From the NCBI GenBank assembly GCA_964409935.1, contig CAYPFP010000001.1, forward strand, positions 30,331 through 94,330: DNA of 64,000 nucleotides, in the 5' to 3' direction. The notes below the pieces were generated by a model. The model was not told where the DNA came from. It searched no databases and was given only the letters and a program-made list of their open reading frames with translations. Positions 46,243 to 64,000 of this stretch are shown here, piece by piece. Position numbers and translations under genes: made by a program. This DNA is from an uncultured Planctomycetota bacterium (GTDB lineage Bacteria; Planctomycetota; Brocadiia; JAADGH01; CAYPFP01). Position 1 is the first letter of the stretch, and each line of letters starts with the position of its first letter.

Positions 46243-46661
46243 AGTTCGACATTGTGAAATGGTCGGCCCGCGTCCTGGCCCTGCTATGGGCGGGTTGGTG
46301 GATGTTCTTCGGCCTGGCGTGCGGCGCTTCGCACAAGTGGGGCCTGTTCGCCTGTCTGCTTCACGGCGCCGTGCCCGGCGGGATTTACCTGGTCAGCGCG
46401 CTGGTTCCGTGGAGGTGGCCCCTTGCCGGCGGAGTGTTGCTTGTCGTTGAAGGGTCGGCCATTCTGATCGGGTATCCCGTGCTGGTCCATGGACGTTTCA
46501 GGCTCTCGACAATCCTCTTTGTGGCGGCTACAATGGCCGCGCCGCCGCTGATTTCGGGCGCGTTGTTCATCTTCCATGGCAGGAGGTCGAGGTCCCATGA
46601 CCAGTCGAGAGCGGGTGCTGGCCGCGTTGAACCACCAGGAGCCGGACCGGGTCCCCATTGA
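46239..46661 (+). CDS. small 4-TM membrane protein
   Basis: ATG overlaps the upstream stop (ATGA); four hydrophobic segments; 3' end overlaps the next gene by about 65 nt, so the true end is uncertain. Confidence 0.4.
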   Translation: MKFDIVKWSARVLALLWAGWWMFFGLACGASHKWGLFACLLHGAVPGGIYLVSALVPWRWPLAGGVLLVVEGSAILIGYPVLVHGRFRLSTILFVAATMAAPPLISGALFIFHGRRSRSHDQSRAGAGRVEPPGAGPGPH

Positions 46662-47847: not shown

Positions 47848-47950
47848 AGATTGCGGCGAACGCCCAGAGCCTGAGTCTCGAACCGTCCCCGGCGGCGGCA
47901 GACATTGCGTTTAAGATTCGATGTTAGAACAGGAAAAGGAGCGTGAACCC

Positions 47951-48994: not shown

Positions 48995-49171
48995 AGCTCC
49001 GAACGCCTTGGGCAGGAAGCGAGGGCGGCCTCGGGTCAACGCGTGGGCCGAAGGCATCCGCAAGACGGCCGGAAACATGGAGAAGGCGCTCTATGCCTAT
49101 CGCGACCTGGCCATCGAGCTGAACGAACTATACGCGAACGTCAAGGGCGCACGGAACTGGAAGAAGTCGAA

Positions 49172-49807
49172 ATGACAATGCGAAACAACCTGAACATCGC
49201 GTTCTTTCTTTTCGCGGCGCAATGCGCCATCCTGCCGGCGCCCGACGCCGGGGCGCAACCGGCGCAGGAGGACTCGTATGTTCAGGTCCGCGCCGGCCAC
49301 CTTGTGCGCAACGGCCGGAGGCTTCGCCTATGGGGCATCAACACCCAGGGACCAACCTTCCGCGACGGCGTCAAGGTGCAGGGCGTGGGGAAGCTCTGGA
49401 CCGATCCGGATGATATCGCGCCGCCCAAGGAGGGCAAGGCCGGGCAGTATCGCCCGTATTACGCCTTCACGCTGGTGAGCGACGACGGCCTGGCGCTGGC
49501 GCAGTCAAAGCGGCTTCTGGTCTCGCTGGTGAGCACGTCGCAGAACACCGGCTACGCGTTCGACCCGGCGAAGGTCCCGCAGGCGGGCCCCGACGCCCAA
49601 ACGATGGCGAAGGGCATTCTGTCGCGGGGGACGATGCCTGTGCAGGTGAACCGCGTCGGCGCGTCGGTGGCGGCGCCGTTCCTCATCGGGAAGAAGTACA
49701 GCAAGCTGGATTTCGGCATGGAGGCGTTTGAGCAGGGCGAGGTGAAGGACAAGTTCGTGATCGCGCACACGGACCCGCTGTTTATCGCGACCTTCCATGC
49801 GGAGTGA
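49172..49807 (+). CDS. secreted hypothetical protein (211 aa)
   Basis: MTMRNNLNIAFFLFAAQCAILPAPDAGAQPA signal peptide. Confidence 0.5.
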   Translation: MTMRNNLNIAFFLFAAQCAILPAPDAGAQPAQEDSYVQVRAGHLVRNGRRLRLWGINTQGPTFRDGVKVQGVGKLWTDPDDIAPPKEGKAGQYRPYYAFTLVSDDGLALAQSKRLLVSLVSTSQNTGYAFDPAKVPQAGPDAQTMAKGILSRGTMPVQVNRVGASVAAPFLIGKKYSKLDFGMEAFEQGEVKDKFVIAHTDPLFIATFHAE

Positions 49808-49842
49808 CGACGGGCTTTCCCGTCCTTCGCCAGGCGACGCCG

Positions 49843-51630
49843 CTAGGTCTCCTTCGTCGTGCCGAACTGCATCGCGTAGAGGTGGCTGTACTCTCCTCGC
49901 TTCGCCAGAAGCTCGTCGTGCGTGCCCATCTCGATGATGCGGCCGTTGCGCAGGACGATGATGCGGTGGGCGAACTTGATGGTGGAGAGGCGATGGGCGA
50001 TGACGAAGGTGGTGCGCCCCTGCATGAGTTTCTGAAGGGCGTCCTGGATGAGTCTTTCGGAGTCGGAGTCGAGCGAGGACGTGGCCTCATCGAGGATGAG
50101 GATTTGGGCGTTCTTCAAAAAAGCGCGGGCGATCGTGACCCTCTGGCGCTGACCGCCGGAGAGCTTTGACCCCATCTCGCCCACTTCGGTCTCATATCCC
50201 CTGGGCAGCGAGGCGATGAAGTCGTGGATGTTCGCCGCTCTGGCCGCCTCGGCGATCTCCTCCGAGGCGGCGCCGGGCTTGCCGTAGCGGATGTTGTCGG
50301 CGAGGGAGCGGTTGAAGAGGAACGGCTGCTGCGAGACGATGGCGATGTGGTCGAGGAGGGAGTGCTGGCGTATCTTGCGCAGGTCGAGGCCGTCAATGGT
50401 GATGGCGCCTTCCTGGGGGTCGCGGAAGCGGGCGATGAGGTCGCACAGGGTGGACTTGCCGGCGCCGCTGTGACCGACGATGGCGACGATCTCGCCGGGC
50501 TTCACGAGCAGGTTGATGCCGCACAGAACGGGGACGGTGTTGTAGGCGAAGGTCACGTTGTCGAAGCGAATGCCCTCGCGCATGAGGGGCATCTCGACGG
50601 CGTCGAGGGCGTCCTGGATGGTGGGGGGCGTGTCTATCAGTTCGAAGATGCGCAGCGCGCCGGGCAACGACTCCATGAGGTTGTTGTAGGCCTTGCTCAG
50701 GCGCTTGACAGGGGCGAACATGCAGGCGGCGGCGGCGATGAAGGTGACGAACTCGCCCGCCGTGAAGTTCAGGCCCAGCGTGCCGGGGTACAGGAGAACG
50801 TACCCGCCGCCGAGGATGATGAGGAAAAGGCCGGCGTTGCCGATGAAGTCCACCGCGCCGTCGGCGATGGCCTTGGCCTTGACGGTCTTCATGACCCTGC
50901 CGAAGTAGCGCTGGTTGGTCTGGCGGAAGTCTTCGGTCTCCGCCGTCTCCATCGCGAAGGCCTTGACGATGCGGATGCCGCTGAACATCTGGTGCATGGC
51001 CTCGGTGATGTCGGACAGGCGTTCGAGGGCGCTGCGCGCATACTTCTTGACGCGCTTGCCCAGCACGCCCATCACGATGCCGACGAAGGGGAAGATGATG
51101 ACGGACGCGATGGAGAGCTGCCAACTCGCCCACAAGGCCACGGTCAGGAAGGCGATGAGGCCGAAGACGGCCTGGAGGATTTCCGAATAGAGGAACTGAA
51201 GGGCGCGGTAAAGGATGGCGATGTCGTTGGTGAGACGCGACATCAGGTCGCCGGCGCGACGGTCTTCGAAGAAGGCCAGGGGCTGCGGCAGCAGCTTGGC
51301 GCACAGCTCGTTGCGGATGTCCATGAGCGCGGACCACAGGACGCGGCCGCCGCCGTATGTCTGGAAGGTGTTGCTCAGGAAGATCACGGGGGCCAGAAGG
51401 ATGAGGTAGATGGCGATGTTGAGCAGGTTGTGGATCGCCTCCGGGCGCGAGGCGGCCTCGAAACCTTTCAGGAGGCTGTTGTCCACCAGGGGTTTGGTGA
51501 GCCACAGCTTGATGCCGTTGGTGGCCGAGTAGGCGACCATGGTTACCAGCGTGAGCAGCACCCACAGCCGGTGCGGCCAGGCATAGCGGTATACGCGAGC
51601 GTAGGTTCGAAGGAATTCGGACTTTATCAT
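49843..51630 (-). CDS. ABC transporter permease/ATP-binding protein (MsbA-like exporter)
   Basis: Six-TM domain then Walker A GHSGAGKST, ABC signature LSGGQRQRVTIARAF, Walker B ILILDEATS. Confidence 0.9.
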   Translation of the reverse strand: MIKSEFLRTYARVYRYAWPHRLWVLLTLVTMVAYSATNGIKLWLTKPLVDNSLLKGFEAASRPEAIHNLLNIAIYLILLAPVIFLSNTFQTYGGGRVLWSALMDIRNELCAKLLPQPLAFFEDRRAGDLMSRLTNDIAILYRALQFLYSEILQAVFGLIAFLTVALWASWQLSIASVIIFPFVGIVMGVLGKRVKKYARSALERLSDITEAMHQMFSGIRIVKAFAMETAETEDFRQTNQRYFGRVMKTVKAKAIADGAVDFIGNAGLFLIILGGGYVLLYPGTLGLNFTAGEFVTFIAAAACMFAPVKRLSKAYNNLMESLPGALRIFELIDTPPTIQDALDAVEMPLMREGIRFDNVTFAYNTVPVLCGINLLVKPGEIVAIVGHSGAGKSTLCDLIARFRDPQEGAITIDGLDLRKIRQHSLLDHIAIVSQQPFLFNRSLADNIRYGKPGAASEEIAEAARAANIHDFIASLPRGYETEVGEMGSKLSGGQRQRVTIARAFLKNAQILILDEATSSLDSDSERLIQDALQKLMQGRTTFVIAHRLSTIKFAHRIIVLRNGRIIEMGTHDELLAKRGEYSHLYAMQFGTTKET

Positions 51631-51683
51631 ATCGCGTGACGCACACTATGGCCGATAGGCCGGAACGCCTCTTCGGGATCGCC

Positions 51684-52727
51684 TTACATTGTCTCGAAAG
51701 CGGTTTCGATCATGGCCCGGTAGTTCTCGACGGGCACGTAATAGGTGACGGAGTTGGACGAGCCGAGGCAGTACCCGCCGTCGTAGGCCAGGTCGCGGAT
51801 GTTGGCGCGGGCGAGGGTCCGCACTTCGTCGGGGGCGCCCCGCGAGAGGCGGTCCAACTCGATGTTTCCGGCCAGGCACAGCCGGCCTTCGACGCGCTTT
51901 TTCAACGCGCGGATATCCATGGCTTTAGGTTCGACCGGATGCAGGCCGTTGAAGCCGGCGTTGATGATATCCTCAATGACCGCCGTCAGGTCTCCGTCGG
52001 AGTGGTAGAGGAACGGTATGTCGCGCTGCTGGCAGAGCAGCGACATCTTCCTGTACCACGGGAACATGTATTTGCGCAGGATGGCCGGCGAGACCATCAG
52101 GCCCGTCCCGTAGGCGATGTCGTCGGACATCCACGCCGCGGCCACGCCGGGCAGTTCCAGGGCCTGTTCGAGCGCCCGGAATTGGATGTTGCCGACCTTG
52201 TTGAACAGCCGTTCGACGAGGGCGGGGTTCTCCACGGTGGCCAGGGCGAAGGTTTCGAAGCCCATGAGCATCCACACCGACGTGAAGACCTTGCCGAGGA
52301 TGGCGATGGTGCGCATGTCGGGCGGGAGGAGTTTGGAGACTTCCCGCGCCACGGCGAGGCCGGGGCTTTCCTCGGCGGGCCACTGGAAGCGCTCAAGCTC
52401 CTCTTCGGTCGTGATGACGCCCTTGCCTTCGGCGGCCCACTTCATCTCGACCTCTTCTTCGGAGTAGATGCTGTAGCGGGATCGCTTTCGCAGCGTGGCG
52501 TCGCCGGACAGGACGCCGCCCACCTCCAGGATGCCGAGCGAGATGGGCACGTAGTCGTAGCCGGCCAGAATCCAGAACTCCACCTCGTCCTGCAACGAAG
52601 CGGCGCGTTTGCCGAGGAAGGCGGACTTGACTTGGTTGTCTACGAATAACTCGATAAGGGGGACGCGATCCGGCTTGCCTTCGAGCAGCAGGGCGGCGCG
52701 AAGCCTGGTGAAATCGTTGCGTTTCAT
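51684..52727 (-). CDS. URO-D family protein, paralog 3
   Basis: 347 aa; N-terminal RLRAALLLEGKPDRVPLIELFVDNQV and C-terminal GGYCLGSSNSVTYYVPVENY parallel paralog 1. Confidence 0.8.
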   Translation of the reverse strand: MKRNDFTRLRAALLLEGKPDRVPLIELFVDNQVKSAFLGKRAASLQDEVEFWILAGYDYVPISLGILEVGGVLSGDATLRKRSRYSIYSEEEVEMKWAAEGKGVITTEEELERFQWPAEESPGLAVAREVSKLLPPDMRTIAILGKVFTSVWMLMGFETFALATVENPALVERLFNKVGNIQFRALEQALELPGVAAAWMSDDIAYGTGLMVSPAILRKYMFPWYRKMSLLCQQRDIPFLYHSDGDLTAVIEDIINAGFNGLHPVEPKAMDIRALKKRVEGRLCLAGNIELDRLSRGAPDEVRTLARANIRDLAYDGGYCLGSSNSVTYYVPVENYRAMIETAFETM

Positions 52728-52813
52728 GGGAATCTGTCGCCCTCGTGATCGTCCCGGTTGCGGTGTCGTTCCCCCGCGGGGAAGTTTACGACGCTTGGCG
52801 CGGGTTCCAACAG

Positions 52814-52845
52814 AAAAGGGAGAGGCGCCAGCCTCTCCCTTTTCC
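52814..52845. terminator. bidirectional rho-independent terminator
   Basis: AAAA-GGGAGAGGC-gcca-GCCTCTCCC-TTTTCC; 9-bp GC stem flanked by A4 and T4-5; lies between the URO-D paralog 3 start and the lipoprotein stop. Confidence 0.6.
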
Positions 52846-52898
52846 TTGATGAGCTCGATTGAGCGACTGCGCCATCGAAACGGCCGCCGCAGTGCGAC

Positions 52899-53192
52899 TT
52901 ACTTCTTTTCCGCCGGCTTCTTTTCTTCCGGCTTTGCGGGGGCCGCAGGAGCCGCCGGAGCCGCAGGGGCCGCCGGGGCCGGAGTCGCCGCGGGGGCCGC
53001 CGGGGCCGGAGTCGCCGCGGGGGCCGCCGGGGCCGGAGTCGCCGCGGGGGCCGCCGGGGGCGCCTCAGGCTTGGCTTCCTTCTTCTCAGCCGCCGGCTTC
53101 TTCGGTTCCTTGGCCGGCTTCACTTCCTCACCGCATCCGACGATAAACCCTACGCCAACCGCCAACGTTAGCGCCAGCAACCACTTGTGCAT
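52899..53192 (-). CDS. Pro/Ala-rich tandem-repeat lipoprotein (97 aa)
   Basis: [23 protein letters not shown] lipobox; three-plus copies of the 9-aa repeat TPAPAAPAA encoded by a 27-bp tandem repeat; strong aaaggagg RBS. Confidence 0.6.
52960..53060. repeat. 27-bp tandem repeat (about 3.5 copies) inside the lipoprotein gene
   Basis: The unit ggccggagtcgccgcgggggccgccgg recurs at 52977, 53004, 53031 (period 27). Confidence 0.7.
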
Positions 53193-53259
53193 CGCCTACC
53201 CCTCCTTTCAAGAGTGTATAGGGCCATAAAATGATAGCAGATGCCTTAAACTTGGGAGA

Positions 53260-53288
53260 AGTATAGTATGCCCTGAAGTCGGTGTCAA
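53260..53288 (-). promoter_or_regulatory. near-consensus sigma70 promoter TTGACA-17-TATACT for the lipoprotein gene
   Basis: Minus-strand TTGACA (53288-53283), 17-nt spacer, TATACT (53265-53260); AT-rich surroundings; 67 nt upstream of ATG 53192. Confidence 0.5.
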
Positions 53289-53295
53289 GGCAAAA

Positions 53296-53342
53296 ATTGC
53301 AAAAAACCGACATGCCCGCCGCTCCCTCCGATGGCGGCGGAA
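53296..53342 (-). terminator. candidate terminator after the giant pseudopilin gene
   Basis: Minus-strand hairpin ccgccgc...gcggcgg (53316-53341) followed by ggTTTTTTgcaaTTTTTg. Confidence 0.35.
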
Positions 53343-53373
53343 TGGCCATATCTCCCTGTCTGGGCGGCGCTTG

Positions 53374-56300
53374 TCAGTATTCGGTCACAAAGCGCGAGGT
53401 TTGGGCCTTTACGCCGTCGGTGACGCCGTCGGCCCCCGGTGTCGGGAGGCCGGTGGCAAGCGGCTGGGCGTTGAGATTGTTGACGATATCGGTTCGCTCG
53501 ACCAGGGCGCGGATGCGGGCCTCAGCCAGTTGGCCGCTGGGGTTGAAGACGCGCCCGCGGGCTACGACGGTGAAGAAGCGCGACTTGATGTCGAGCACGT
53601 TCCAGTACCGCGAGAACCATTCCATGCGCTCGGCGATGTCGTCGGCCAGGTCGTCGTTCAGGTAACCCGCGCCGGTGTCGTCGAAGTCCAGAGGGTTGAA
53701 CCACGATCCGGAGCCGAGGTTGATGGGGTAGTTGTAGGCGCTGTTGTCGGCGCGGCCGCCGTTGCGGATGGCGGTGGTGCCCGTTCGCACGCTCCAATCC
53801 CTCTGATAGACTCTATCCCGAAGGGTCTGGGTGTCCGAATCCGGGCTGACGTTGAACTGTCTTGGGGTCTTCAGGAGGGTGTAGAAGGCGTTGCGGGTGA
53901 AGAAGGGGTCGCCGCGCAGGACCTCGAAGTTGACGCCCAGGCCGAAGCCCTGGGGGGCGATGGGGGCCACGCCCCGGTCGCTGCGCAGGGGGAGTATGAC
54001 GTTGTTCAGCTCCGCGCTGACCGCGTTGGTGTACCGGCAGGAGGTCGGAAGGATCCTTCGGCGGAGTTCGGGGGTTTCGAGATTGATGGTGGCGTTGTCG
54101 CCGGGGGCCGGGGGCGTGCCGCTGCCGGAGAGGCCGATATATCCTGAGAATCCGCAGACGTCGAGGATGTCGCGGTAGGGGCGGTGACGGATGATGTCGG
54201 CGGCCATGGAGGTGGGGAAGACGGCGGCCAGTACGGGCATGGAGGCGGTGTTGATGTTGATCTTCGCCCGCGCGCGGCCGTGGGGCCAGACGGTGGCGAT
54301 CTCGCGCCAGTCGGGCGTTCGTTCGACCCAGGCGTAATTGGTGGTGCTGGCGGTCTGCGGTCTGGGGAAGACGGTGGGCCGCAGGTAGAGAGGCGCGGCG
54401 AAGTTGGTGCGGGCGGTCCACAGGGCGTTGCGCTGGTTCGGGATGGTGGTGTTCAGGACCCACGTCGTGAAGGGCGAGGGTCGGAAGGAGTAGTCCGTGT
54501 TCAGGGTTCCGGCGGCGTAGGTGGCGGTGAGTCCGCCGCTCAGGCCGATGAGGCGGGTGAGGATGTTGTCGTCGTAGTAGCAGGGGCCTCTGTTCTGGCC
54601 GTTGGCCGGGTTTTCCACGAAGAGGCGGGCCACGTCGTTCTCGCCGACGCGCTCTTCGGGCAGGATGGGGGCCATGTTCTTCCAAGGCCCCATCGGGGAA
54701 TGGACGAAGGCCAGCCAGCCGACGCTGGGGAAGGCGTTGTCGAGCACGACGGGGACAGTGCGATTGTCAATGGCCATGCGCAGTTCGACATGGTCCATCC
54801 AGTGGTGGTCGTTCTGGTTGCCGGGCCTTCGGGTGCCCGCGGGCAGGTCGCGGAACCAGGCAGGGGCGGAGGCCATGTCGTCCACGTGTCCGGGATAGAG
54901 GTACTTGCGGCCGAAGACGTTGCCGGCGTCATAGAAATACATGTAATTCTTGTTCCAGTTGCGCAGGCGGCGGCGGCCGGTCTCGACGTCGGGGGGGTCG
55001 TTGGTGGTGGAGGCGGGGTCGGGCCGCCAGAGGTTCCGCTGGCTGCTGCGCCACCAGAGGTTTTGGGACATGTCGTAACTGGCTGCCTGTCGCTGGAACA
55101 GGTTCGCCTTGGTGCTGTTGAAGTCGGGGTCAATCTGAAGCCATGCGGCGTTCATGCCGGCGCGGGCCTGGGGATCGGAGGCGTTGACGGGCATGAAGCG
55201 CTTCATGGAGGCGTTGGCGTGGCCGGCGTTGGGCACGACGGGGGCCGTTTTCTCGATGGCGCAGTAATCATACCGGTCCGTGGCGGCGCTGGCCTTGTCG
55301 CCGGTGGTGATGGCGGCGACCTGGCGGCTGGTGAAGTTCATGCTGGAGGCGCCGGCCCAGAGGTCAATCTCGCCGCCGGCGACCTGGAATTGCAGGGGCT
55401 GTGCGCGGCCGGGGATGGTGGGTCCCCAGATTTCGGAGCGGCCCCACACGGTGACGGGATTGCTCGTGGTTCCCTGATCGCGGTTCCAGAGTCCGAAGAG
55501 TTGGTCAATCTCCCTTATGGGGGAGGGGGGCGTCGTCGTGAAGTTGGACGGGAATTCCATGAACTGGACGGGGTAGTCCTCTTCGCCGACCCGGCCCCAG
55601 CCCACGTTGGAGATCACGTAGCCGGGCGTGGCGGCGTAGTAGTCCGAGACGGCGCCCGCGCCGAAGGTACCGCAATAGGCCGCTTCGCTGAGGGCCACGA
55701 CGTAATAGCCGAAGTTGGTGGGGAACATCCCGTCGGCGGTGGCCGGGGGGATGAAGGTGGTGGCTCTCTGTGCTCCCGCTTTGACGTCATAGAAGAGGGC
55801 GGTTTCGTTTTGGGTGGTCTTGGGGTCGTTGCCCAGCCAGAATCCGGGCCGAAGGGGACGACCGCTTCGGTCGTCGTAGAGGAAGTAATTGTTGACGTCC
55901 ACGAGACTCGGAGTAGGGGTGCGCATGACGAGCTTGAAGGCGAGCAAGCCGCCTGGCGACAGGGCCAGCGGGATGGGTTTCTTGCCGATATTGACCAGTT
56001 CCGCGTAGGGGCAGACGAAACGGAGGCTGTAGAACTTGGCGAACTTGTTGGCGACGCCGCCGGCGGGGTCCCACCGGCTGATGCCGCGGACCCTGATGAC
56101 GAAGCCGACGTTGGGGTCGGCGTCCACCCGGATGGCCATGGACTTGCGGCCGCCTCTGGGGAGGGGCTTGCCGATGCTGGGGATCGTGTTGTCGGGGTAG
56201 GTCACGAAGCCATAGATGTTGTCCACACCGGCGGACTCGTCGGTCAGGTTCACCGTGCCGGTGTTGGCGTCCTTCACCGGGACGTGGAAGCGGCGGAAGT

Positions 56301-59300
56301 TCCTGTCGCCGACGGTGAGGTTGTGGAAACCGGTCGCGGTCGGGTAGTCCAGGCCGGTGGGGGTGAGCAGGACGACGCCGTTGCGTTGGCCGGGCAGGCT
56401 GCTGCCCATGTCGGTGGCGGGGAAGCTGACGGCCAGGCTGGCGCCCTTGGGGAAGCCGTCCGGTTCGGTGCCCGTGGCGCCGACATCGTAGGATTCGCCG
56501 TAGGCCATGACGACGTAGGCCCCGCGGGGGACGCCCTTGATGCGCCACTGGCCGGTCACCTTTGCGTCCACGGGGGTGACGGGGGGAGGATTGGTTGCCG
56601 GGTTGGGCGCGCGGACGTTGAGGATGAACTCGTTGGGCGTGGCGCCCGGCTCCCACTTGGCCTCCAGGCTGAGGGGGTCGGCGAGGGCGGGCAGGAAACG
56701 AGGGGGATCTTCCGCCGCCGTGTAGCTGGCATCCACCGTTACCTCCGACGTGGGGACCGTTCGGGTCTTGCTCCTGTCGGAGCCGTGTATTTCGGGGGCG
56801 ACCATGACTTCGTTGAGGTGCACGCCCTCGACGCCGAAGATGTCCACATTCCCCGTTTGGAGCCGCTGCTGGTAGTCAGGCCAGTTCAGAGCGGTTTCGA
56901 GGTTGGGGTACGATGTGACCAGCATGGCGGGGACGGGGAAGGTGTAGTTGGAGGCGTTGTTGTCCTGGTCCTGGAAGTCCACGATGTTGGCCCACATCTG
57001 GTCGCGCAGGATGCGGCCAAGCGTGGCGACGGGGTCGGTGGTGGTGTCCGTGGCGTCATAGGATGCCGGCTGGCCGACGAGGGTGTAGGGCCTGGCGATG
57101 CCGAGGGGCTGGAAGCTGGGGTCGGATTCGGGGACGGGGGGGACGTAAACGCCGTCGCCGGAGGATTGGTCCGTGGGGGCGCAGCGCATGGCGGGGAAGA
57201 AATACTGGTTGCTGCCCAGGCGCAGGGCGATGGTGTCCACATAACCGGCGTTGCTGTATTCGAGGCCGCCCGTGATCCGGCCGGCGCCGAAGGCGCGGCG
57301 GAAGGCGCGTTTCAGCCGGGCCACCTTCTCGGCGCCGTTGAGGGGCCTGGTGTCCTCTTCCGGGGGGTTGGCGCCGCCGATCCAACTGGTGGGCGGGTCG
57401 TACTCGCCCTGCTGGACGCGGGCGGGGTAAGGAGGGTTGGAGAAGGTGCGGGTGACCGAAAGGCTGGAGTCGGTGGCGTTCTGGGAGACCACGATGCCGT
57501 TAATGGCGTTGCTCTGGTCGGCGCGCCGCCAGCCGTTTTGAGAGCGGGGGATGTCAATGCGGCCATTGTTGTCGTTGTCCATCTGGTCGGAATGCCAGAG
57601 GTCCACGTTGATGTTCACCTTGCCGGTATCGTGGTCGGCGACGGAGACGGAGATGTCTTCGCGCACGATGCTGAAGACGCGGGAGGCCTCGGCATAGAGG
57701 TCGCCGATGTCCAGGATGGGCGTGGTGGGGTTGCCGCTGGCGTCGAGGCGGGTGGGGTCGAAGTCGCCGTTGACGTTGACGGCGACGTTGCCGCTGTTGT
57801 TGAGGATGTAACCGACGCCGAGCCGCTGGCCGATGGTGGCCTGTCCTCTGCTGCCGACCCAGGCGTCATTGGTGGGGAAGGGGGCGGCGGCGCGGCCGCC
57901 GGTAGCGCCCCAGACGAGGGCGTCAATCATCTGCTCGATGGCGGTGTAGGGGCGGTCGTCGCCGCGGGGGTAGACGGGGTCGAACTCGCGGTCGTCGTCA
58001 ATGCCCTCGATGGTTCCGCTGGCGCCGAGGGGGTAAGGCTCGTCCACGAATTGACTGGTAGTGCGGTCGTGCGGCTCCCAAAACCGTTGGGAAGGGTTCG
58101 CGCCCATCATGAAGTTGGGCACGCCGTCGTTGAAGCCCACGTTGAAATTGACGTTGGCGTTGGCGGTGGGGAATCCGATGCCCTTGTCGAGGGTGTTGGC
58201 GCCGACGACGGCGTTCCAGTTGCCGTTGTCGTCCAGGCCGTTCTCGCGGACCAGGAGGCGGCGCCTGTTGTAGATGTCCCAATCCGTCAACGTTCCGGCG
58301 GCGGGGACGTCGTGGTCGCTGTCGTCATCCACGTTGCGGCGGCCGGGGAAGAGGTCCTGGCCGTAGCGGTAGAGGATGATGGCGCGGGCGAAGCCGCGGG
58401 CCTGGGTGACGGTGAAGCCGTAGGCCTCGAAGAAGCGCACGAGGCTGACGCGGAAGGAGTCGAGCTTCATGGTGGCGTCGAGGGCGCCGTTGGCGGCGTA
58501 GAAGGCGGGGTCCCACAGGCTGCCGTGGGCGTTGAGGTTGATCTTTCCTCCCTCGTCGAGGATCATGCCCTCCACGTCGTTGCCGTCGCTGAGTTCAAGG
58601 TCGGGCAGGGCGCTGGAGAGCGCGCCGCCGGTGGTCCGATATCGGCCATCGGAGTCCTCGTCGTCGTCCTGGGCGTTGCCGCCCAGGCGGCCGCCGGCGT
58701 AGCTGACGAAGTTGGTGCGGGGTGCGCTGGCCGTTGGCACGGGGTTTCCGGTCCAAAGGGGGTAGTAACCGTCGGCGGTCTGGCCGTCGTCGTCGGTGTC
58801 ATTGGCGATATTGCGGGTGTAAACGCCGCCGGTCAGGTTGGCGTCCACGCGTTTGAGGCCCAGGTTGCCGGCGCCCATGTCGCGCAGGTCGCCGAAGCCC
58901 TCCTCCCAGACGCGGCCGTCGTTGTCCGAGGTCACGTTCTGGGTCTGGCCGTTAACATTGTCCAGAATATAGTTCCAGCTGGTTGGCGGTACGCGCGCTA
59001 GCCATATCCAGGGTTCGACTCGGCCGGCGGCGACGGTGGTGTTGGTCTGGTAAACGTATTGGAAACTCTTGCCGGCTTGGTTTTCGTTGCCCATCTGGTC
59101 GCCGCTGAAGAGGTCGTCGTTGGCGAGATTGTTGTAGTAGGAGGCGTCCCAGAAGTTGCGGGTGCGGGCGGTGTCCTTGTAGGTCATGGCCGCTGTGCGG
59201 TTGAGAGTTCTGTTGAAGTAGCTGCGGCCGTCGGGAATTCCGGGGTCTTCGTTGGGAAAGCCGTCGCCGTCGGAGTCGGCGAGCATGTTGTTGTCTTCGT

Positions 59301-59976
59301 CCACCTGGCCGTCGCGGTCGTCGTCTACGTTGGGGGCGCCGGGGCGGCCGTCCTGGTCGGGGGTGAAGCCGTCCTCGTCCACGAGGGGAGTCAGGCCGAG
59401 GGCGTTGCGCTGGTCGCGGTCCTCGTCATCGTCGGAGGCGTTGCCGCCGGGGTTGTAGCCGGGGGTGCCGGCGGTGTAGCCGTTGATGTCCTCGTCTATT
59501 TTGCCGTCGCCGTCGTCGTCAATGCCCTGGATGCCGGGATAGCCGTCGGCATTGTCGTCGCCGGGGGGGTCTTCGTTGATGTGCCAGTTGAGGTCGTAGC
59601 AGGCGCGGCGGTTGCCGTCGTTGTAGACGAGTTTGTGATAGGGGTTGGCGGCGGGCTGGTTGTTGTTGCCCTGTGAGCGATTCCAGGTGGGCTGAAGCAC
59701 GCCGCTCGTGTTGGTGGGGCAGGGCGGCGTGAACCAGGCCTCGGAGAAGTCGTCGAAGCGGGGGTCGTCCTTGGACAGGATCTCGATGGCGGCCTGAAGG
59801 CCTTCCCTGGCGGCGAACTCGGCGATCTGGCGGTCGGTCAGCGTGCGGCTGCCGGCCAGTTCGGTGCGGGAGATGAGGGCGAAGGTGACGCCCATGAGCG
59901 CCAGCACGGCCAGTACGCCGACGGCGACGATCAGGATGGAACCTCGTTGGCGGGGTCCGTCGGAATTGTAGTTCAT
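53374..59976 (-). CDS. giant GspK-like minor pseudopilin (about 2200 aa) with thrombospondin-type-3-like Asp-rich Ca-binding repeats
   Basis: N-terminus RQRG|SILIVAVGVLAVLALMGVTFALISRTELAGSRTLTDRQIAEFAAREGLQAAIEIL matches the GspK/T2SS-K N-terminal helix (Gly at -1, no Glu5); DEGGKINLN motif typical of the GspK family; DDDGDGKIDEDINGY, DDRDGQVDEDNN, DSDGDGFPNEDPG, DDDEDSDGRY repeats; ggaagga RBS before ATG 59976. Confidence 0.8.
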   Translation of the reverse strand: MNYNSDGPRQRGSILIVAVGVLAVLALMGVTFALISRTELAGSRTLTDRQIAEFAAREGLQAAIEILSKDDPRFDDFSEAWFTPPCPTNTSGVLQPTWNRSQGNNNQPAANPYHKLVYNDGNRRACYDLNWHINEDPPGDDNADGYPGIQGIDDDGDGKIDEDINGYTAGTPGYNPGGNASDDDEDRDQRNALGLTPLVDEDGFTPDQDGRPGAPNVDDDRDGQVDEDNNMLADSDGDGFPNEDPGIPDGRSYFNRTLNRTAAMTYKDTARTRNFWDASYYNNLANDDLFSGDQMGNENQAGKSFQYVYQTNTTVAAGRVEPWIWLARVPPTSWNYILDNVNGQTQNVTSDNDGRVWEEGFGDLRDMGAGNLGLKRVDANLTGGVYTRNIANDTDDDGQTADGYYPLWTGNPVPTASAPRTNFVSYAGGRLGGNAQDDDEDSDGRYRTTGGALSSALPDLELSDGNDVEGMILDEGGKINLNAHGSLWDPAFYAANGALDATMKLDSFRVSLVRFFEAYGFTVTQARGFARAIILYRYGQDLFPGRRNVDDDSDHDVPAAGTLTDWDIYNRRRLLVRENGLDDNGNWNAVVGANTLDKGIGFPTANANVNFNVGFNDGVPNFMMGANPSQRFWEPHDRTTSQFVDEPYPLGASGTIEGIDDDREFDPVYPRGDDRPYTAIEQMIDALVWGATGGRAAAPFPTNDAWVGSRGQATIGQRLGVGYILNNSGNVAVNVNGDFDPTRLDASGNPTTPILDIGDLYAEASRVFSIVREDISVSVADHDTGKVNINVDLWHSDQMDNDNNGRIDIPRSQNGWRRADQSNAINGIVVSQNATDSSLSVTRTFSNPPYPARVQQGEYDPPTSWIGGANPPEEDTRPLNGAEKVARLKRAFRRAFGAGRITGGLEYSNAGYVDTIALRLGSNQYFFPAMRCAPTDQSSGDGVYVPPVPESDPSFQPLGIARPYTLVGQPASYDATDTTTDPVATLGRILRDQMWANIVDFQDQDNNASNYTFPVPAMLVTSYPNLETALNWPDYQQRLQTGNVDIFGVEGVHLNEVMVAPEIHGSDRSKTRTVPTSEVTVDASYTAAEDPPRFLPALADPLSLEAKWEPGATPNEFILNVRAPNPATNPPPVTPVDAKVTGQWRIKGVPRGAYVVMAYGESYDVGATGTEPDGFPKGASLAVSFPATDMGSSLPGQRNGVVLLTPTGLDYPTATGFHNLTVGDRNFRRFHVPVKDANTGTVNLTDESAGVDNIYGFVTYPDNTIPSIGKPLPRGGRKSMAIRVDADPNVGFVIRVRGISRWDPAGGVANKFAKFYSLRFVCPYAELVNIGKKPIPLALSPGGLLAFKLVMRTPTPSLVDVNNYFLYDDRSGRPLRPGFWLGNDPKTTQNETALFYDVKAGAQRATTFIPPATADGMFPTNFGYYVVALSEAAYCGTFGAGAVSDYYAATPGYVISNVGWGRVGEEDYPVQFMEFPSNFTTTPPSPIREIDQLFGLWNRDQGTTSNPVTVWGRSEIWGPTIPGRAQPLQFQVAGGEIDLWAGASSMNFTSRQVAAITTGDKASAATDRYDYCAIEKTAPVVPNAGHANASMKRFMPVNASDPQARAGMNAAWLQIDPDFNSTKANLFQRQAASYDMSQNLWWRSSQRNLWRPDPASTTNDPPDVETGRRRLRNWNKNYMYFYDAGNVFGRKYLYPGHVDDMASAPAWFRDLPAGTRRPGNQNDHHWMDHVELRMAIDNRTVPVVLDNAFPSVGWLAFVHSPMGPWKNMAPILPEERVGENDVARLFVENPANGQNRGPCYYDDNILTRLIGLSGGLTATYAAGTLNTDYSFRPSPFTTWVLNTTIPNQRNALWTARTNFAAPLYLRPTVFPRPQTASTTNYAWVERTPDWREIATVWPHGRARAKININTASMPVLAAVFPTSMAADIIRHRPYRDILDVCGFSGYIGLSGSGTPPAPGDNATINLETPELRRRILPTSCRYTNAVSAELNNVILPLRSDRGVAPIAPQGFGLGVNFEVLRGDPFFTRNAFYTLLKTPRQFNVSPDSDTQTLRDRVYQRDWSVRTGTTAIRNGGRADNSAYNYPINLGSGSWFNPLDFDDTGAGYLNDDLADDIAERMEWFSRYWNVLDIKSRFFTVVARGRVFNPSGQLAEARIRALVERTDIVNNLNAQPLATGLPTPGADGVTDGVKAQTSRFVTEY
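59240..59640 (-). repeat. region encoding Asp-rich calcium-binding (TSP3-like) repeats in the giant gene
   Basis: Clusters of gacgac/gatgac codons on the coding strand; protein motifs DxDxDGxxD. Confidence 0.5.
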
Positions 59977-60009
59977 CAGACTTGTTCCTTCCAGGGGCGG
60001 TAACAAACA

Positions 60010-60047
60010 GGTTTCGGGTTTCTGGTTTCTGGTGCCTGGTTATCTGG
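60010..60047. repeat. array of 7-bp tandem repeats (GGTTTCG/GGTTTCT x5)
   Basis: GGTTTCG GGTTTCT GGTTTCT GGTGCCT GGTTATC; reverse complement of the array at 60489-60540; overlaps the stop codon of the four-helix-bundle gene. Confidence 0.8.
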
Positions 60048-60450
60048 CAGATTCGGTAGTTTTCTTGTACTTGAGACCCTTTATCTGCGAAACACGAAGA
60101 TAGCGCATCAATCCGGCGATCATCCGGCCGGTTCTGCGCGTCAGGGCATACAAATCCTGGAAGACGTCCGGCTCGACATATTCCTGGTCCAAAGCGACGT
60201 ACAACTGGCTAGCGACTTCGCCCGAGGAGGCCGTGGCGTTGGAGAGGAATTGGAGAAACTCCTTGTTTCCGTCTCGCTCAAACCCTTCGGCAATATTGGA
60301 CATAATGGATATGCAGGCTCTGCGAATCTGGTCACGAAGCGCGTAATCCTTGGAGAACGCGCCCTGATTGGAAACCTTATAGATGTCACGGCTCAGTTCC
60401 CGCGCCGTCTGCCAGGCTTCTATGTCCTCAAATCTCTTGAAGGTAGCCAT
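60040..60450 (-). CDS. four-helix-bundle protein (23S rRNA intervening-sequence protein family, TIGR02436-like)
   Basis: 136 aa; MATFKRFEDIEAWQTARELSRDIYKVSN...ALRDQIRRACISIMSNIAEGFER...EFLQFLSNATASSGEVASQLYVALDQEY is the characteristic pattern; lower GC than its flanks. Confidence 0.8.
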   Translation of the reverse strand: MATFKRFEDIEAWQTARELSRDIYKVSNQGAFSKDYALRDQIRRACISIMSNIAEGFERDGNKEFLQFLSNATASSGEVASQLYVALDQEYVEPDVFQDLYALTRRTGRMIAGLMRYLRVSQIKGLKYKKTTESAR

Positions 60451-60488
60451 CTTGGCTGCCCCTGTGCCTCAGGATTCGAGTAGCAGGA

Positions 60489-60540
60489 CCCGAAACCCGA
60501 AACCCGAAACCAGAAACCCTAAACCCGAAACCCGAAACCT
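60489..60540. repeat. array of 7-bp tandem repeats (CGAAACC x7 with variants)
   Basis: CGAAACC CGAAACC CGAAACC AGAAACC CTAAACC CGAAACC CGAAACC; begins 3 nt after the pseudopilin stop. Confidence 0.8.
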
Positions 60541-60543
60541 CCG

Positions 60544-61578
60544 TCACAAATCCCCCCTCCGGGGTCCCAGCGCCTTGATGTAGGAGGGGATGAAGATGAC
60601 CTGGCGGAAGACTATGCCGACCTCGTCCACGCGGAAGTCGGCCTGCTTCAGGCCGTCGCCGGGGTAGTCGTCGGTTCGACCGGGAGCGAGGAACTGGGCT
60701 CTGGGCCGGGGTTCGTCGCGTCCGTCGGTGATTTCCGTGGAGTAAAAGTCCGTCCATTCGTATTCGTTGGGGTCGGCGATGCGCAGGGTGACCTGGACGG
60801 CGGCGGGGATGCGGGCGCGAGCGGCCTGGTCGCTGTCGAAGGCCCAGGACGTGTTGGCTCCGGCGCCGGAACGATTCACCAGGTTGTAGGCCATGCCTCG
60901 CGTCGGCGGCCAGAAGTCGAACCAGTGCGTTTCTCTCTCGCCGCTCAGCCAGACTCGCTGGTCGGAGTTCTGATTGAAGCCGTCCACCTGGTAGTACCGC
61001 AACTGGAATTCGCGCACGTTGAAGCCCAGGGCGCTGAAGTCAAAGCGGGGCGAGGGGTTCGCGGGGGTGGGGTCGTGGACGAGGACGGCGGCAAGGTCGG
61101 CCGCCGTGGTCGGCCCGGTGAGGAGTCGGCGCGAGACGCCTTTTTCCAGGACGTGGCGGCCGGTGACGCAGTAGACGACCTCGACGGGGGTGCCGAAGTT
61201 GGAGGATTCGGTGGTGGTGCGGAACCAGAGCATGTCGGGGTAGCAGTAGGGGACGCTGGTCCTGCTGGTGTCGCACAGGATGTTGAAGAACGGGACGCGC
61301 GGCACCCAGGTGCTGGAGTAGGTGTAGGCGCGGTTCCAGCCGATGAAGACGTTGCCGCTCTCGTCCACGACGGCGCCTTGCAGGTCGCGCTGCATGGTGT
61401 CAACGATGGCGCGGACCGTCTGGTAGATGGCGATGCGGGCGTCGGCGCTCGAGAGCATGTTTCCGGCGCTGCTGAAGATGGTGTAGAGCATGATGGTGAT
61501 GATGGTCATGAGGCCGGCGGCGACGGTGAGTTCGACGAGGGTGAACGCCGCGGCGGCCTTTGATTTGAGTTTCTTCAT
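60544..61578 (-). CDS. prepilin-type N-terminal cleavage/methylation domain protein (GspJ-like minor pseudopilin, 344 aa)
   Basis: KAAAAFTLVELTVAAGLMTIITIML N-terminus (FTLxE core, Ala at -1). Confidence 0.75.
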   Translation of the reverse strand: MKKLKSKAAAAFTLVELTVAAGLMTIITIMLYTIFSSAGNMLSSADARIAIYQTVRAIVDTMQRDLQGAVVDESGNVFIGWNRAYTYSSTWVPRVPFFNILCDTSRTSVPYCYPDMLWFRTTTESSNFGTPVEVVYCVTGRHVLEKGVSRRLLTGPTTAADLAAVLVHDPTPANPSPRFDFSALGFNVREFQLRYYQVDGFNQNSDQRVWLSGERETHWFDFWPPTRGMAYNLVNRSGAGANTSWAFDSDQAARARIPAAVQVTLRIADPNEYEWTDFYSTEITDGRDEPRPRAQFLAPGRTDDYPGDGLKQADFRVDEVGIVFRQVIFIPSYIKALGPRRGDL

Positions 61579-61643
61579 GCGACCTTCCTTTTCGTGATGC
61601 GCGTGACGTGGAGAACGACTCGCGCGATACGCACGCCCTTTCG

Positions 61644-63017
61644 TCAGAAGAACGACGAGATGGTGCTTGTCGAGACGCCGATGAGCGTCTGCGGCGACTG
61701 GTCCTGTATCGTCCGCATATGGTTATAGTTGAGGAAGACCAGCACGTCCACGCGGGCGCCGAGGGGAACGGAGGCTTCCTTGCCCCTGCGGGCCGGTTCG
61801 GGGGAGAAGGCGTCGCGGGGGATGGGGATCGGCGCTATGGCCCAGGCGTTGACGTTTGCGTTGACGTCTTCGGAATTGCTCATGATGATGGCGTAGGAAT
61901 ACGAGGAGCCGGCGATGGTGGCTTCGGGGTCGTTGAGCCAGTCTTTGCGGTTGGCGCCGAAGGGGATGGTCTGGTCCGGTTCCGCGTTGCCTGCGCCGAA
62001 GTTCGAGGCGGTGGGCCTGCCGGTCACGGCGTCGGGAGGGCCGAAGGGGAAGACGGCGCTGACTTCCCTGGCGCCCAGGATGACGAAGCTGTCGTTGCGG
62101 CGCACGCGTCCGTTCAGGGCGTCGCCGGTGTTGAGCCAGTTGTTGTTGGCCGGCTCGGCGGCGCTGAAAATGCCGCGGGTGACGTTGACGCTGCTGGCGG
62201 TGTTGGAGGTGACGGGGAGCACCTTGCCCTTGGCCAGGCCGCTGGTGAAGACGACGAAGAAACGGGCGTCCACGCCGGCGGCGGCGCCGGTTCTGGAGAA
62301 CTCGTTGGGGGTCCAGTTGACATAGCCGGTGGTTCCGAAGTTATCGTCCGCCGCGTCCATCCGCTTGGCCGTGATGCTGTTGCCGGAGGCGGAGACGACG
62401 CGCGCCATGCGGGGACTGCCGGGGGAGCGCGGCAAGGCCCACTTGGTGATGACGAAGCACGAGCTGTTGTCCAGCGGCATGGGGCGGTTGAGAGGGTCGA
62501 GGAAGGGAGAGCTGACCGTGACATGGAAGGAGGCCGCATAGGCCATGGAGGTGCTGTCAATCCTCCGGACCTGGCCGGCGCCCGTGCCGGAGGTCACCAG
62601 CAGGTAGTGGCCCGCCCGGCTGGTGTACATGAAGGGGTACTGGGCCTGCGCGCGCCAGTCCACGCCCGCTCCGGAGGCGGCGCCGGGGCTGATCTCGCAG
62701 TAGACGGTGGTGGGGGTCTGCGTGATGGCGGTGGAGTTGGCGGCGACGCGGTACCAGGGATTTCGCAGGCGGTAGTCGAAGACCTCGCTGGTGTTCACCA
62801 TGTAGTTGACTTGCGCGAAGGCCGTTTGCGAGGCCAGGTAGACGACCTTGTTGTTGATGGCGCGCGTGGTGGCATCGAGTCCCACGGGGAACAGGGACAT
62901 GACGCCCACGATGCCCAGGACCATGATGAACATGGCGATGAGGATTTCGGTGAGCGTAAAGCCCGCGGCCGCCGTGGTTTTCGCTTGTCGGTTCATTGGC
63001 ATCTTTCGTTCTTGCAT
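61644..63017 (-). CDS. prepilin-type N-terminal cleavage/methylation domain protein (expanded minor pseudopilin, 457 aa)
   Basis: TAAAGFTLTEILIAMFIMVLGIVGV is a canonical G|FTLxE prepilin signal. Confidence 0.8.
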   Translation of the reverse strand: MQERKMPMNRQAKTTAAAGFTLTEILIAMFIMVLGIVGVMSLFPVGLDATTRAINNKVVYLASQTAFAQVNYMVNTSEVFDYRLRNPWYRVAANSTAITQTPTTVYCEISPGAASGAGVDWRAQAQYPFMYTSRAGHYLLVTSGTGAGQVRRIDSTSMAYAASFHVTVSSPFLDPLNRPMPLDNSSCFVITKWALPRSPGSPRMARVVSASGNSITAKRMDAADDNFGTTGYVNWTPNEFSRTGAAAGVDARFFVVFTSGLAKGKVLPVTSNTASSVNVTRGIFSAAEPANNNWLNTGDALNGRVRRNDSFVILGAREVSAVFPFGPPDAVTGRPTASNFGAGNAEPDQTIPFGANRKDWLNDPEATIAGSSYSYAIIMSNSEDVNANVNAWAIAPIPIPRDAFSPEPARRGKEASVPLGARVDVLVFLNYNHMRTIQDQSPQTLIGVSTSTISSFF

Positions 63018-63072
63018 AGGCGAGGGGTCAGGCGGCTGGCGGGTCCGGTCCTGAACGCCCCAACCCGGTCAT

Positions 63073-63894
63073 TCACATCACCTGCACGACCCCGCCGGTC
63101 TGGGGGAAGAAGATGATCCATGCGCCGCCGGCGAAGATGGGCGCGCCGGTCGAATGGGGGCGGTTGGGGGTGTACTTTCCGCGTTCCACGACGAGGAACG
63201 CCCGCCGCCCGTTGTTTTCGAACTGGATGCTCGTGACGTACATGATCTCGTCGTCAATGAGGATGTAGCCCGTGGCCTCGATGCTGTGGCTGGTGCTGAT
63301 CTCGATGCGCGTCTGGAAGGCGTCTACATCGCCCAGGAGCGCGCCGACCGTGCCGCCGCCGACGGATGTGACGATGCCGCCGGTGGGCTTTGCGTAGCGA
63401 GAGGCGGCCTCCGCCTTGACATCGGTGACGTACTTGCCCGTGCCGTCCTTGTCGAAGGTGAGGACCATGACGGGGCGGGCGCCGTTGGAGTAGCCGGCCT
63501 GGATGGCGGCGGTGTTGTCGCCGATGGCTCTGGAGAGATTGACGTCGCGTCTCCAGTGGTTATCGGGGACGCGGAAGGTGATGCCTTCGGGGAGGACGAC
63601 GGGGGCGTCCACCGGCACGTATTGAGAGTCGGTCACGACGCAGAACCGTTCGCCATGGTAGACGATGAGAGAAGCGGTGGAGTTGGTGGCGATGGCGTGA
63701 TGGCGGGCCTGGAGCGTGGCGGCGTGGAGCTGGCGTGCCGCATGGCGCTCCCGGCTGCGGCTGATCATGGGGCTGGTCGCCACGATGGAGACGAGGGCGA
63801 GCAGGATGACGATGCCGATGACGGTGAGCATCTCGGCCAGCGTAAAGGCTTGGTCGCGTCGGCGGTACGGCATCGCGATTCGATCCATTTTCAT
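63073..63894 (-). CDS. GspH-like pseudopilin
   Basis: gcaggagg RBS then ATG AAA ATG; RRRDQAFTLAEMLTVIGIVILLALVSIV...SRERHAARQLHAATLQARHHAIA resembles GspH. Confidence 0.75.
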   Translation of the reverse strand: MKMDRIAMPYRRRDQAFTLAEMLTVIGIVILLALVSIVATSPMISRSRERHAARQLHAATLQARHHAIATNSTASLIVYHGERFCVVTDSQYVPVDAPVVLPEGITFRVPDNHWRRDVNLSRAIGDNTAAIQAGYSNGARPVMVLTFDKDGTGKYVTDVKAEAASRYAKPTGGIVTSVGGGTVGALLGDVDAFQTRIEISTSHSIEATGYILIDDEIMYVTSIQFENNGRRAFLVVERGKYTPNRPHSTGAPIFAGGAWIIFFPQTGGVVQVM

Positions 63895-63908
63895 TGCAGC
63901 CTCCTGCA

Positions 63909-64000
63909 TTATCTGCTTCCCCAGTTATTTACATCATCGGCGGCTTCGCCGAGCATATTCAGTTCGGGGGCGTCGTCCACCGCGCCGTTCATGTCGTCGT
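63909..64000 (-). CDS. 3' end of an upstream gene of the same operon (partial)
   Basis: In-frame ...DDMNGAVDDAPELNMLGEAADDVNNWGSR then TAA (63911-63909), followed directly by the RBS of the GspH-like gene. Confidence 0.35.
   Translation of the reverse strand, partial: DDMNGAVDDAPELNMLGEAADDVNNWGSR

Follow-up and report, generated by a model that had tools for sequence, protein, structure and literature searches.

Why should a gene of the family named after the intervening sequences (IVSs) of 23S rRNA lie between two pseudopilin genes? The question is raised by a 64,000-nucleotide stretch of DNA from an uncultured Planctomycetota bacterium (contig CAYPFP010000001.1, positions 30,331 to 94,330; the whole stretch is called the window below). 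Here a 136-amino-acid open reading frame (ORF) flanked by tandem heptamer arrays occupies the spacer between a J-like minor pseudopilin gene and a giant GspK-like gene. The element is most likely a cassette formed by a hairpin with inverted arms of ~4-7 heptamers each, the loop of which contains an Avd-like four-helix-bundle gene. A comparison of homologous loci reveals that this inverted heptamer-array architecture is the rule for the PF05635 family across phyla.

The ORF encodes a full-length member of PF05635/TIGR02436, with scores above the curated thresholds. It matches PF05635 (23S_rRNA_IVP) at E=1.4e-33 and 115.7 bits (cut-off 33.8) over profile positions 1-105 of 106, and TIGR02436 ("four helix bundle protein") at E=8.9e-32 and 109.6 bits (threshold 24). 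The closest solved structure is XCC0516 of Xanthomonas (PDB 2GSC; E=5.7e-11 with the single sequence and 2.5e-19 with a profile). Matches to 2GSC and 2RLD, each of which has five chains, place the protein in a predicted four-helix-bundle fold, and its isoelectric point is 9.0. A PHROG match to "Avd protein of DGR" (diversity-generating retroelement; E=5e-5) was also obtained, and close homologs give weak bAvd-like Pfam matches. Both the relation to Avd and the occurrence of the family in rRNA IVSs were already known (PMC4990558, PMC10053308).

Homologs of the protein number in the thousands, at 60-78% identity, and are distributed across phyla. None was found in the phage collection, and viral contigs yielded a single distant homolog (locus L094). 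Pfam, NCBIfam, and PADLOC report the four-helix-bundle family alone, with no recognizable nuclease, recombinase, or HUH motif and no match to the anti-phage defense models of PADLOC. Comparison with its ortholog in a related operon (locus L104, described below) gives a ratio of nonsynonymous to synonymous substitution rates (dN/dS) of 0.11; the protein is under purifying selection.

The two arrays that enclose the ORF are reverse complements of each other, with 33-nt arms that are 85% complementary. Tandem Repeats Finder assigns period 7, 7.4 copies, and 91% matches to the array at 60488-60539, and period 7, 5.3 copies, and 80% matches to that at 60010-60047, where the last two units are degenerate. 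The 13-mer GGTTTCGGGTTTC, allowing ≤2 mismatches, occurs eight times in the 64 kb, always within these arrays. Shuffled sequences give a mean of 2.2 occurrences, and 0 of 100 shuffles reach eight. Elsewhere in the window, period 7 is signaled by just two trivial stretches of 16-18 nt, and no heptamer arrays are present at the I-J and H-I junctions of the same operon. The 5′ array begins 3-4 nt past the J-like stop codon (60546-60544), degenerate initial units of the 3′ arm run over the final codons and stop codon of the ORF, and the 3′ array ends 17 nt short of the ribosome binding site (RBS) of the K-like gene (GGAAGGA, 59992-59986).

A sense transcript of 59990-60560 (571 nt) is predicted to fold with the two arrays paired around the ORF. 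The minimum free energy of this fold is -224 kcal/mol, compared with -196 ± 6 kcal/mol for shuffled sequences (z=-4.4). When only the arms are cofolded, 53 inter-arm pairs (6 of them G·U) are predicted at -71.2 kcal/mol, including uninterrupted helices of up to 14 and 10 bp. The predicted pairing joins 60558-60491 with 60055-59993, such that the stem takes in the J stop codon and stops 1 nt short of the K RBS. The initial annotation had assigned the ORF to the 23S-IVS four-helix-bundle family, placed it with its reverse-complement arrays between the J-like stop and the K-like RBS, and proposed that the arms can pair around it; all of these points are borne out. Its concern that the arrays might be ordinary microsatellites is answered, within the window, by the confinement of the 13-mer matches to the two arrays.

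The cassette shares with rRNA IVSs a long predicted stem enclosing an ORF and arms made of tandem heptamers, whereas a location in a 23S rRNA helix is replaced by pseudopilin genes on both flanks. An Rfam search of 59800-60750 gave no rRNA match and no family for the stem. Between 59700 and 60800, no sigma-70-like promoter is predicted on the coding strand and no terminator-like site of the intrinsic type on the minus strand. No target-site duplication, as expected of a miniature inverted-repeat transposable element or an insertion sequence, marks the array boundaries of the window or L104, and no transposase domain, as expected of autonomous copies, was found.

To what extent is this arrangement particular to one operon? 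We compared 80 homologous loci from species-representative genomes of more than 12 phyla, including Acidobacteriota, Planctomycetota, Verrucomicrobiota, Bacteroidota, Nitrospirota, Desulfobacterota, Chloroflexota, and Omnitrophota, with 237 shifted positions serving as controls. A period-7 array is present on at least one side of the ORF in 90% of loci versus 4% of controls, and on both sides in 65% versus 0%. An inverted-repeat score of at least 14 between the flanks is reached by 84% of loci and 0% of controls. Almost everywhere, tandem heptamers are read 5′ of the ORF and their reverse complement 3′ of it. The period is specific, with period 7 in 72 of 81 loci and periods 4, 5, 6, 8, 9, and 10 in 0-3 loci. 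Arrays number 3.0 per kb within the cassette zone, compared with 0.12 per kb in the remainder of the same loci, a 26-fold difference. The arms are also short, with little spread in length: the median is 4.4-4.6 units and the interquartile range 3.9-5.3, with 4-5 units in 58 of 124 arrays. Across 74 homologous loci, the median distance from the end of the 5′ arm to the ATG is 40 nt.

The heptamers themselves vary by locus (GTTTCNN, GTTCAAN, GTCCAAN, GTTGCGA, and others) around a common GTY core. This core is present in 63 of 63 upstream units (chance 19%), and its complement in 60 of 61 downstream units. Its polarity does not indicate ORF orientation, as an inverted repeat has equal polarity on both strands. 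The order of unit variants is mirrored: identity between the arms is 0.89, compared with 0.80 for adjacent units of one arm and 0.71 after a register shift of 7. Both neighbors run in the same direction as the ORF in 47 of the 62 loci that could be assessed, and both run against it in 1.

The loci lie in unrelated housekeeping contexts, and ORFs that are 75-80% identical are found in unrelated flanks. Unit type follows ORF relatedness (Mantel r=0.20, 0 of 2000 permutations), such that heptamer units are ~85% identical where the proteins are >70% identical. Nearby ORF-less hairpins in the same genome also tend to share the unit type. Other arrays in the same locus match the unit of the cassette (≤1 mismatch) in 32% of cases, versus 9% for units of other loci (0 of 5000 permutations), and 17 ORF-less inverted array pairs were counted in the loci, overlapping pairings included. 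Distant members of the family (26-45% identity, from plasmids and one viral contig) are built alike from different units: GGTTYAA in Riemerella, GGGAAAA in Nostoc and Geminocystis, GTGRTYA in the viral contig, and an 8-nt unit, GAGGGCAG / CTCCTGCC, on a Gemmatirosa plasmid (L101, 540-1100).

Several individual loci carry additional features. A complete hairpin precedes the ORF in L101, besides the downstream arm, and a double hairpin is likewise seen in L007, L011, L029, L051, L052, and L075. At L080 (3385-5120), GTCCAAA hairpins with the unit type of the neighboring PF05635 cassette separate successive genes (378-aa and 96-aa ORFs). A putative tRNA gene follows almost directly after the downstream arm of the cassette in L068 (~3440-3520) and L073 (~3460-3540).

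What occupies the same junction in related operons? Four relatives were found by protein look-ups; two metagenome scans with the K-like N-terminus for further orthologous junctions gave no matches. The initial annotation had called for this comparison, and the relatives do not all carry the same segment. In L104-L107, whose J protein is 53% identical to that of the window, the same cassette type is present, with an ORF 78% identical, a GGTTTCG unit, and a left boundary, TGACGGA(A/G)GTTTCGG, that is common to these loci and the window. In L082, the J gene is 90% identical in DNA sequence to that of L104, and the alignment ends at the J stop codon. The L082 J-K junction holds a PF05635 ORF that shows no similarity in BLASTP to the ORF of the window; GAATGAC and GTCATTC arrays flank this L082 ORF. 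In L083, whose K N-terminus is 72% identical, there is no ORF at J-K; the 100-nt spacer consists of a hairpin of GAGTTCA/GAGGTCA units and their complement (fold z=-3.9). A further ORF-less hairpin, made of GGATTTT units, is found at the J-K junction of L095 (fold z=-2.9).

These data establish that the J-K junction is persistently occupied by heptamer hairpins, and that close relatives differ by cassette replacement and by presence or absence of the ORF. ORF-less heptamer hairpins also occur at the I-J junctions of L083 (227-358) and L104 (2-175). Because the L104 I-J arms (GAGGTCA/GAGTTCA) are homologous to the L083 J-K arms (E=7e-7), hairpins appear to move between junctions. The best candidate for an ORF remnant in the loop of an ORF-less hairpin is an 11-nt match (E=0.07), and it is unproven that such hairpins are deletion derivatives of cassettes.

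The initial annotation had also taken the low GC content of the segment (about 50% versus about 68%) as a mark of insertion. The numbers are roughly right, with 52.6% for the ORF, 63.9% for the window, and 62-70% for the flanks. As a sign of recent import, however, low GC is rejected. Over 81 loci, ORF GC tracks flank GC (r=0.83, slope 0.71) and is on average 7.7 points lower, and the class of highest-GC loci has 55% in the ORF versus 65%. Low ORF GC, at 52.6% versus about 64-66% for the window cassette, is therefore typical of the whole family and provides no evidence of recent acquisition. The arrays change more rapidly than the gene. In a soil population with an identical 133-aa protein in an RNase J/SDR (short-chain dehydrogenase/reductase) context, either 4 or 6 units make up the upstream array, and the downstream array, independently of it, also has 4 or 6; the closest relative of the window cassette has an upstream array of 3 or 4 units, depending on the sample. 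Since unit number varies while the protein is identical, the arrays behave as fast-slipping microsatellites around a constant ORF.

IVSs of 23S rRNA sit in helix 25 or 45, and those that encode an ORF (S23p/IVP) are known from Coxiella burnetii, Leptospira, Brucella, and Xanthomonas. The geometry of rRNA IVSs, which the initial annotation had recognized in the window cassette, is indeed accompanied by heptamer arms in rRNA. On plasmid AZO_p2 of Azospirillum lipoferum (L100), a PF05635 ORF (E=3e-33) replaces a helix tip of a 23S rRNA gene, which Rfam identifies on the same strand (LSU_rRNA_bacteria, 1130 bits). Its upstream array is TCAGA GGACGGA TGACAGA GGACGGA GGACAGA (GGACRGA type), and its downstream array is TCCGTCC TCTGTCT TCTGTCA TCCGTCT TCTGA (TCYGTCC type). 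The Coxiella IVS has tandem GACAGAT heptamers 5′ of the S23p ORF, in numbers that differ by strain, and a 28-bp terminal stem in which an RNase III cut at the first repeat has been shown experimentally (PMC4990558). Because Azospirillum and Coxiella share this design, the classical ORF-bearing IVS is a cassette of the same kind as that of the window, landed in rRNA.

A second link leads to Xanthomonas. Orthologs of XCC0516, the protein of PDB 2GSC, are encoded between accB and accC (L109-L114, 1425-1875). The upstream array of this cassette reads GGGAATC GGGAGTG GAGAATC GGGAATC, and the downstream array CATTCCC CATTCTC GACTCCC TATTCCC, followed directly by the accC ATG. The same heptamer, GGGAATC, occurs ~186 times per Xanthomonas genome, including ~70 convergent inverted pairs (Rehm et al., PMC4692102). 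These repeats have been interpreted as G-quadruplex-forming simple sequence repeats (SSRs) that are generally not tied to mobile elements (PMC4692102), and four-helix, S23, accB, accC, and XCC0516 all gave no match in a term search of that paper.

How might such a cassette function in the operon? With moderate confidence, we favor the explanation that it is a promoterless IVS-type gene cassette in the J-K intercistronic spacer, whose stem would be cleaved by RNase III and bound by the Avd-like pentamer that the cassette itself encodes. By analogy with known IVSs, the cassette would be transcribed within the operon mRNA, and its arms would pair into a stem of ~50 bp that RNase III would cut, as in the IVSs of Coxiella, Leptospira, and Salmonella. 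Such a cut would uncouple the J and K messages and free an ORF RNA with paired ends. The basic pentameric protein may bind its own heptamer repeats, at about one protomer for each unit. All five Avd protomers of the DGR ribonucleoprotein touch one RNA stem-loop via flipped-out bases (10.1101/2023.10.23.563531). The one-protomer-per-heptamer model is attractive because five Avd protomers grip a stem-loop and the modal arm has 4-5 units, but it is unproven. Arm complementarity might be kept by template switching or by selection for pairing, and cassettes and ORF-less hairpins could swap by recombination within the arrays.

Several observations weigh against this explanation. Mismatches between arms across the homologous loci comprise 65 that are compatible with G·U wobble pairing on the sense strand, 68 on the antisense strand, and 107 transversions. 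Because there is no G·U-compatible bias on the sense strand, selection on RNA pairing, as opposed to DNA-level homogenization, is not demonstrated. The GTY polarity is likewise uninformative on RNA versus DNA, since both strands of an inverted repeat show it alike. Co-transcription and RNase III cleavage are carried over to this operon by analogy, and binding of the protein to the repeats is a pure inference by way of Avd, which is reached weakly by sequence. There are no ORF-less copies of the heptamer hairpin in the 64-kb window, and in Coxiella the IVS protein is apparently not made in vivo (PMC4990558). Finally, there is one clear exception to the hairpin rule. On plasmid pPg_01 of Pseudanabaena galeata (L098, 590-1163), a PF05635 gene between cas6 and cas4 is flanked by direct rather than inverted arrays (~17 CTAAAAG upstream and ~10 CCAAAAG downstream).

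The main rival, which we regard as possible although rather unlikely, is a mobile system that acts on DNA. REPINs are doublets of REP (repetitive extragenic palindromic) elements, which form hairpins, and they flank the gene for a REP-associated tyrosine transposase (RAYT). In a comparable arrangement, the heptamer hairpins would themselves be mobile, as small DNA elements whose folding takes place in single strands at replication forks, and the four-helix pentamer would be the trans partner for their spread or maintenance, making the RNA stem and its cleavage incidental. This proposal ranks as the main rival because there is no G·U excess, the wobble signature that RNA selection should leave, and template switching could keep the arms alike. 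It would also account for the conserved GTY core, which suggests sequence-specific recognition and not just any stem, for ORF-less hairpins of the same unit type in the same loci, for homologous arms at different junctions (L083 J-K and L104 I-J), and for ORFs of 75-80% identity in unrelated flanks. The Xanthomonas genome, with one ORF-bearing copy and ~70 ORF-less GGGAATC inverted pairs (PMC4692102), is also in line with it. In contrast, the protein has no recognizable nuclease, recombinase, or HUH motif, no target-site duplications mark the cassette boundaries, and the co-orientation of ORF and neighbors (47 versus 1), together with the 23S cases, shows that RNA context matters, at least for the ORF.

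A host regulatory hairpin that sets the stability or translation of the J and K messages, with the ORF as a dispensable passenger in its loop, is less probable still. In Escherichia coli operons, REP elements and bacterial interspersed mosaic elements (BIMEs) set the relative stability or translation of messages in this way. A heptamer hairpin is kept in all five versions of the junction, with or without an ORF, relatives have ORF-less hairpins at I-J too, hairpins at L080 punctuate successive genes, and ORF-less hairpins fold well (the z values of L083 and L095 above). However, a conserved operon function is hard to reconcile with a unit sequence that differs at each orthologous junction and with the lack of hairpins at this genome's own I-J and H-I junctions. 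Furthermore, the ORF is far from decay, as its dN/dS shows, it remains 78% identical where the J proteins are just 53% identical, and it travels together with the arrays. The remaining two candidates were rejected. A DGR remnant or component with the ORF as Avd accessory protein, suggested by the PHROG and bAvd-like matches, is very improbable at this locus, where the neighbors are pseudopilins and no template repeat/variable repeat-like pair of direct repeats is present in 46000-64000; homologous loci also lie in unrelated housekeeping contexts. Many bacterial genomes have an excess of heptamer SSRs (according to work cited by PMC4692102 and PMC4679880), and the copy numbers seen here slip, as expected if two ordinary microsatellites had met a small gene by chance. 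This has almost no likelihood and is refuted by the controls: arrays are enriched 26-fold beside PF05635 genes relative to the remainder of the loci, and they lie on both sides in 65% of loci versus 0% of shifted positions; the mirrored unit order and the conserved GTY core argue in the same direction.

The gene order in the window, all on the minus strand, is H-like, I-like, and J-like pseudopilins, the 136-aa ORF, and the giant GspK-like gene (Table 1). The J-like protein has a weak N-terminal match to Verru_Chthon cassette protein C. The start of the K-like gene is most likely the ATG at 59976, rather than the TTG at 60006 of the ORF list, which lies inside the repeat array, because alignment to a relative favors this ATG. 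An ordinary GspK has ~300 aa. The giant protein is rich in Asp-rich DxDxDG-like motifs, e.g., GIDDDGDGKIDEDING, and the T2SSK profile matches it over just 40 residues near residue 1916. Directly 3′ of its gene is a 97-aa ORF (52899-53192, minus strand) with a lipoprotein-like signal (…FIVGC) and a Pro/Ala-rich tail (AAPAATPAP…) encoded by a 27-nt (9-aa) repeat of ~4.6 copies at 52936-53064.

Table 1. Features of the cassette and of the flanking pseudopilin operon, in window coordinates.
Feature	Coordinates	Strand	Remarks
H-like pseudopilin gene	63909..63073	minus	
I-like pseudopilin gene	63017..61644	minus	
J-like minor pseudopilin gene, 344 aa	60544..61578	minus	Upstream neighbor of cassette
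5′ arm, heptamer array GGTTTCG/GGTTTAG/GGTTTCT ×7.4 (transcript sense)	60488..60540	minus	Tandem Repeats Finder
ORF 5′ leader, loop side, 37 nt	60451..60487	minus	Weak AGGGG Shine-Dalgarno-like motif before ATG
PF05635/TIGR02436 four-helix-bundle ORF ("23S rRNA IVS protein", Avd-like), 136 aa	60040..60450	minus	
3′ arm, reverse-complement array AGAAACC/CGAAACC ×5.3	60010..60047	minus	Tandem Repeats Finder
Predicted stem-loop, whole extent in operon transcript	59993..60558	minus	Folding and arm cofolding
Giant GspK-like gene, ~2,200 aa	53374..59976	minus	Downstream neighbor of cassette

In the searchable literature, which leaves subscription-only papers outside the search, no link of PF05635 genes in general to flanking heptamer arrays was found; among the papers found there on this subject, only that on the Coxiella IVS notes heptamers (PMC4990558). 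Three aspects appear to be new. PF05635 genes in mRNA operons across phyla are embedded in inverted heptamer-array hairpins of defined length with a conserved core, rRNA IVSs are one instance of this heptamer-hairpin cassette, and genome-wide heptamer families such as the Xanthomonas GGGAATC repeats share their unit with a resident cassette. More tentatively, as a proposal that we consider doubtful at present, PF05635 proteins and inverted heptamer-array hairpins could form an unrecognized pan-bacterial partnership of the REPIN/RAYT kind, in which a non-enzymatic Avd-like pentamer reads ~five heptamers, one per protomer. If this proposal is true, then rRNA IVSs, Xanthomonas GGGAATC repeats, cyanobacterial heptamers, and much of the heptamer SSR excess would be manifestations of one system, which colonizes intercistronic spacers and is processed out of host transcripts.

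The function of IVS proteins and the origin of rRNA IVSs have been standing questions since the early 1990s, and the excess of heptameric tandem repeats in bacterial genomes is a second old puzzle that these cassettes touch. The window locus and its relatives show that the IVS is not confined to rRNA, which is one landing site of a widespread cassette. This cassette combines a well-delimited element in cis, the inverted arrays of 4-5 units, with a conserved candidate in trans, the Avd-like pentamer. The Xanthomonas accB-accC copy, with its ~70 ORF-less GGGAATC hairpins, offers a tractable model in a culturable organism. For annotation, the thousands of genes in operons that are labeled "four helix bundle protein" probably represent insertions, whose effects on the RNA processing of their neighbors can be predicted.

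Each of four known systems resembles the cassette in part. As in REPIN/RAYT systems, short hairpin-forming extragenic repeats occur, often within operons, the protein gene itself lies between inverted repeats, and the repeat sequence fits the resident gene within a genome. The repeats here are tandem heptamer arrays, whereas those of REPINs are unique palindromes. Instead of the HUH/Y1 (IS200/IS605-like) transposase of such systems, the only match is to the four-helix-bundle family, a non-enzymatic-looking Avd-like bundle, and mobility here is only conjectural. With the Xanthomonas GGGAATC repeats and the heptamer SSRs of cyanobacteria, including short tandemly repeated repetitive (STRR) sequences (PMC4692102), the arrays share an intergenic location and a tandem heptamer structure, often in convergent inverted pairs; GGGAATC is the very unit that flanks the Xanthomonas PF05635 gene between accB and accC. 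The protein resembles Avd, the accessory variability determinant of DGRs, as a homologous basic pentameric four-helix-bundle barrel according to a weak sequence match. Unlike Avd systems, neither a reverse transcriptase nor template and variable repeats are present, and the nucleic acid partner would be a stem of heptamer repeats in place of the DGR spacer RNA.

The ORF-bearing IVSs of 23S rRNA provide the last comparison. RNase III excision is demonstrated for these rRNA IVSs only. The host transcript here is a protein-coding operon and not rRNA helix 45, and the G/T-rich arm comes first (GGTTTCG), whereas in rRNA IVSs the purine arm does (GAC...). Both encode a protein of the same family, from an ORF that is enclosed as a loop by a long terminal stem and reads in the same sense as the host transcript. 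In both, the arms of this stem are tandem heptamers (GACAGAT in Coxiella and GGACRGA in Azospirillum), the number of which varies between strains.

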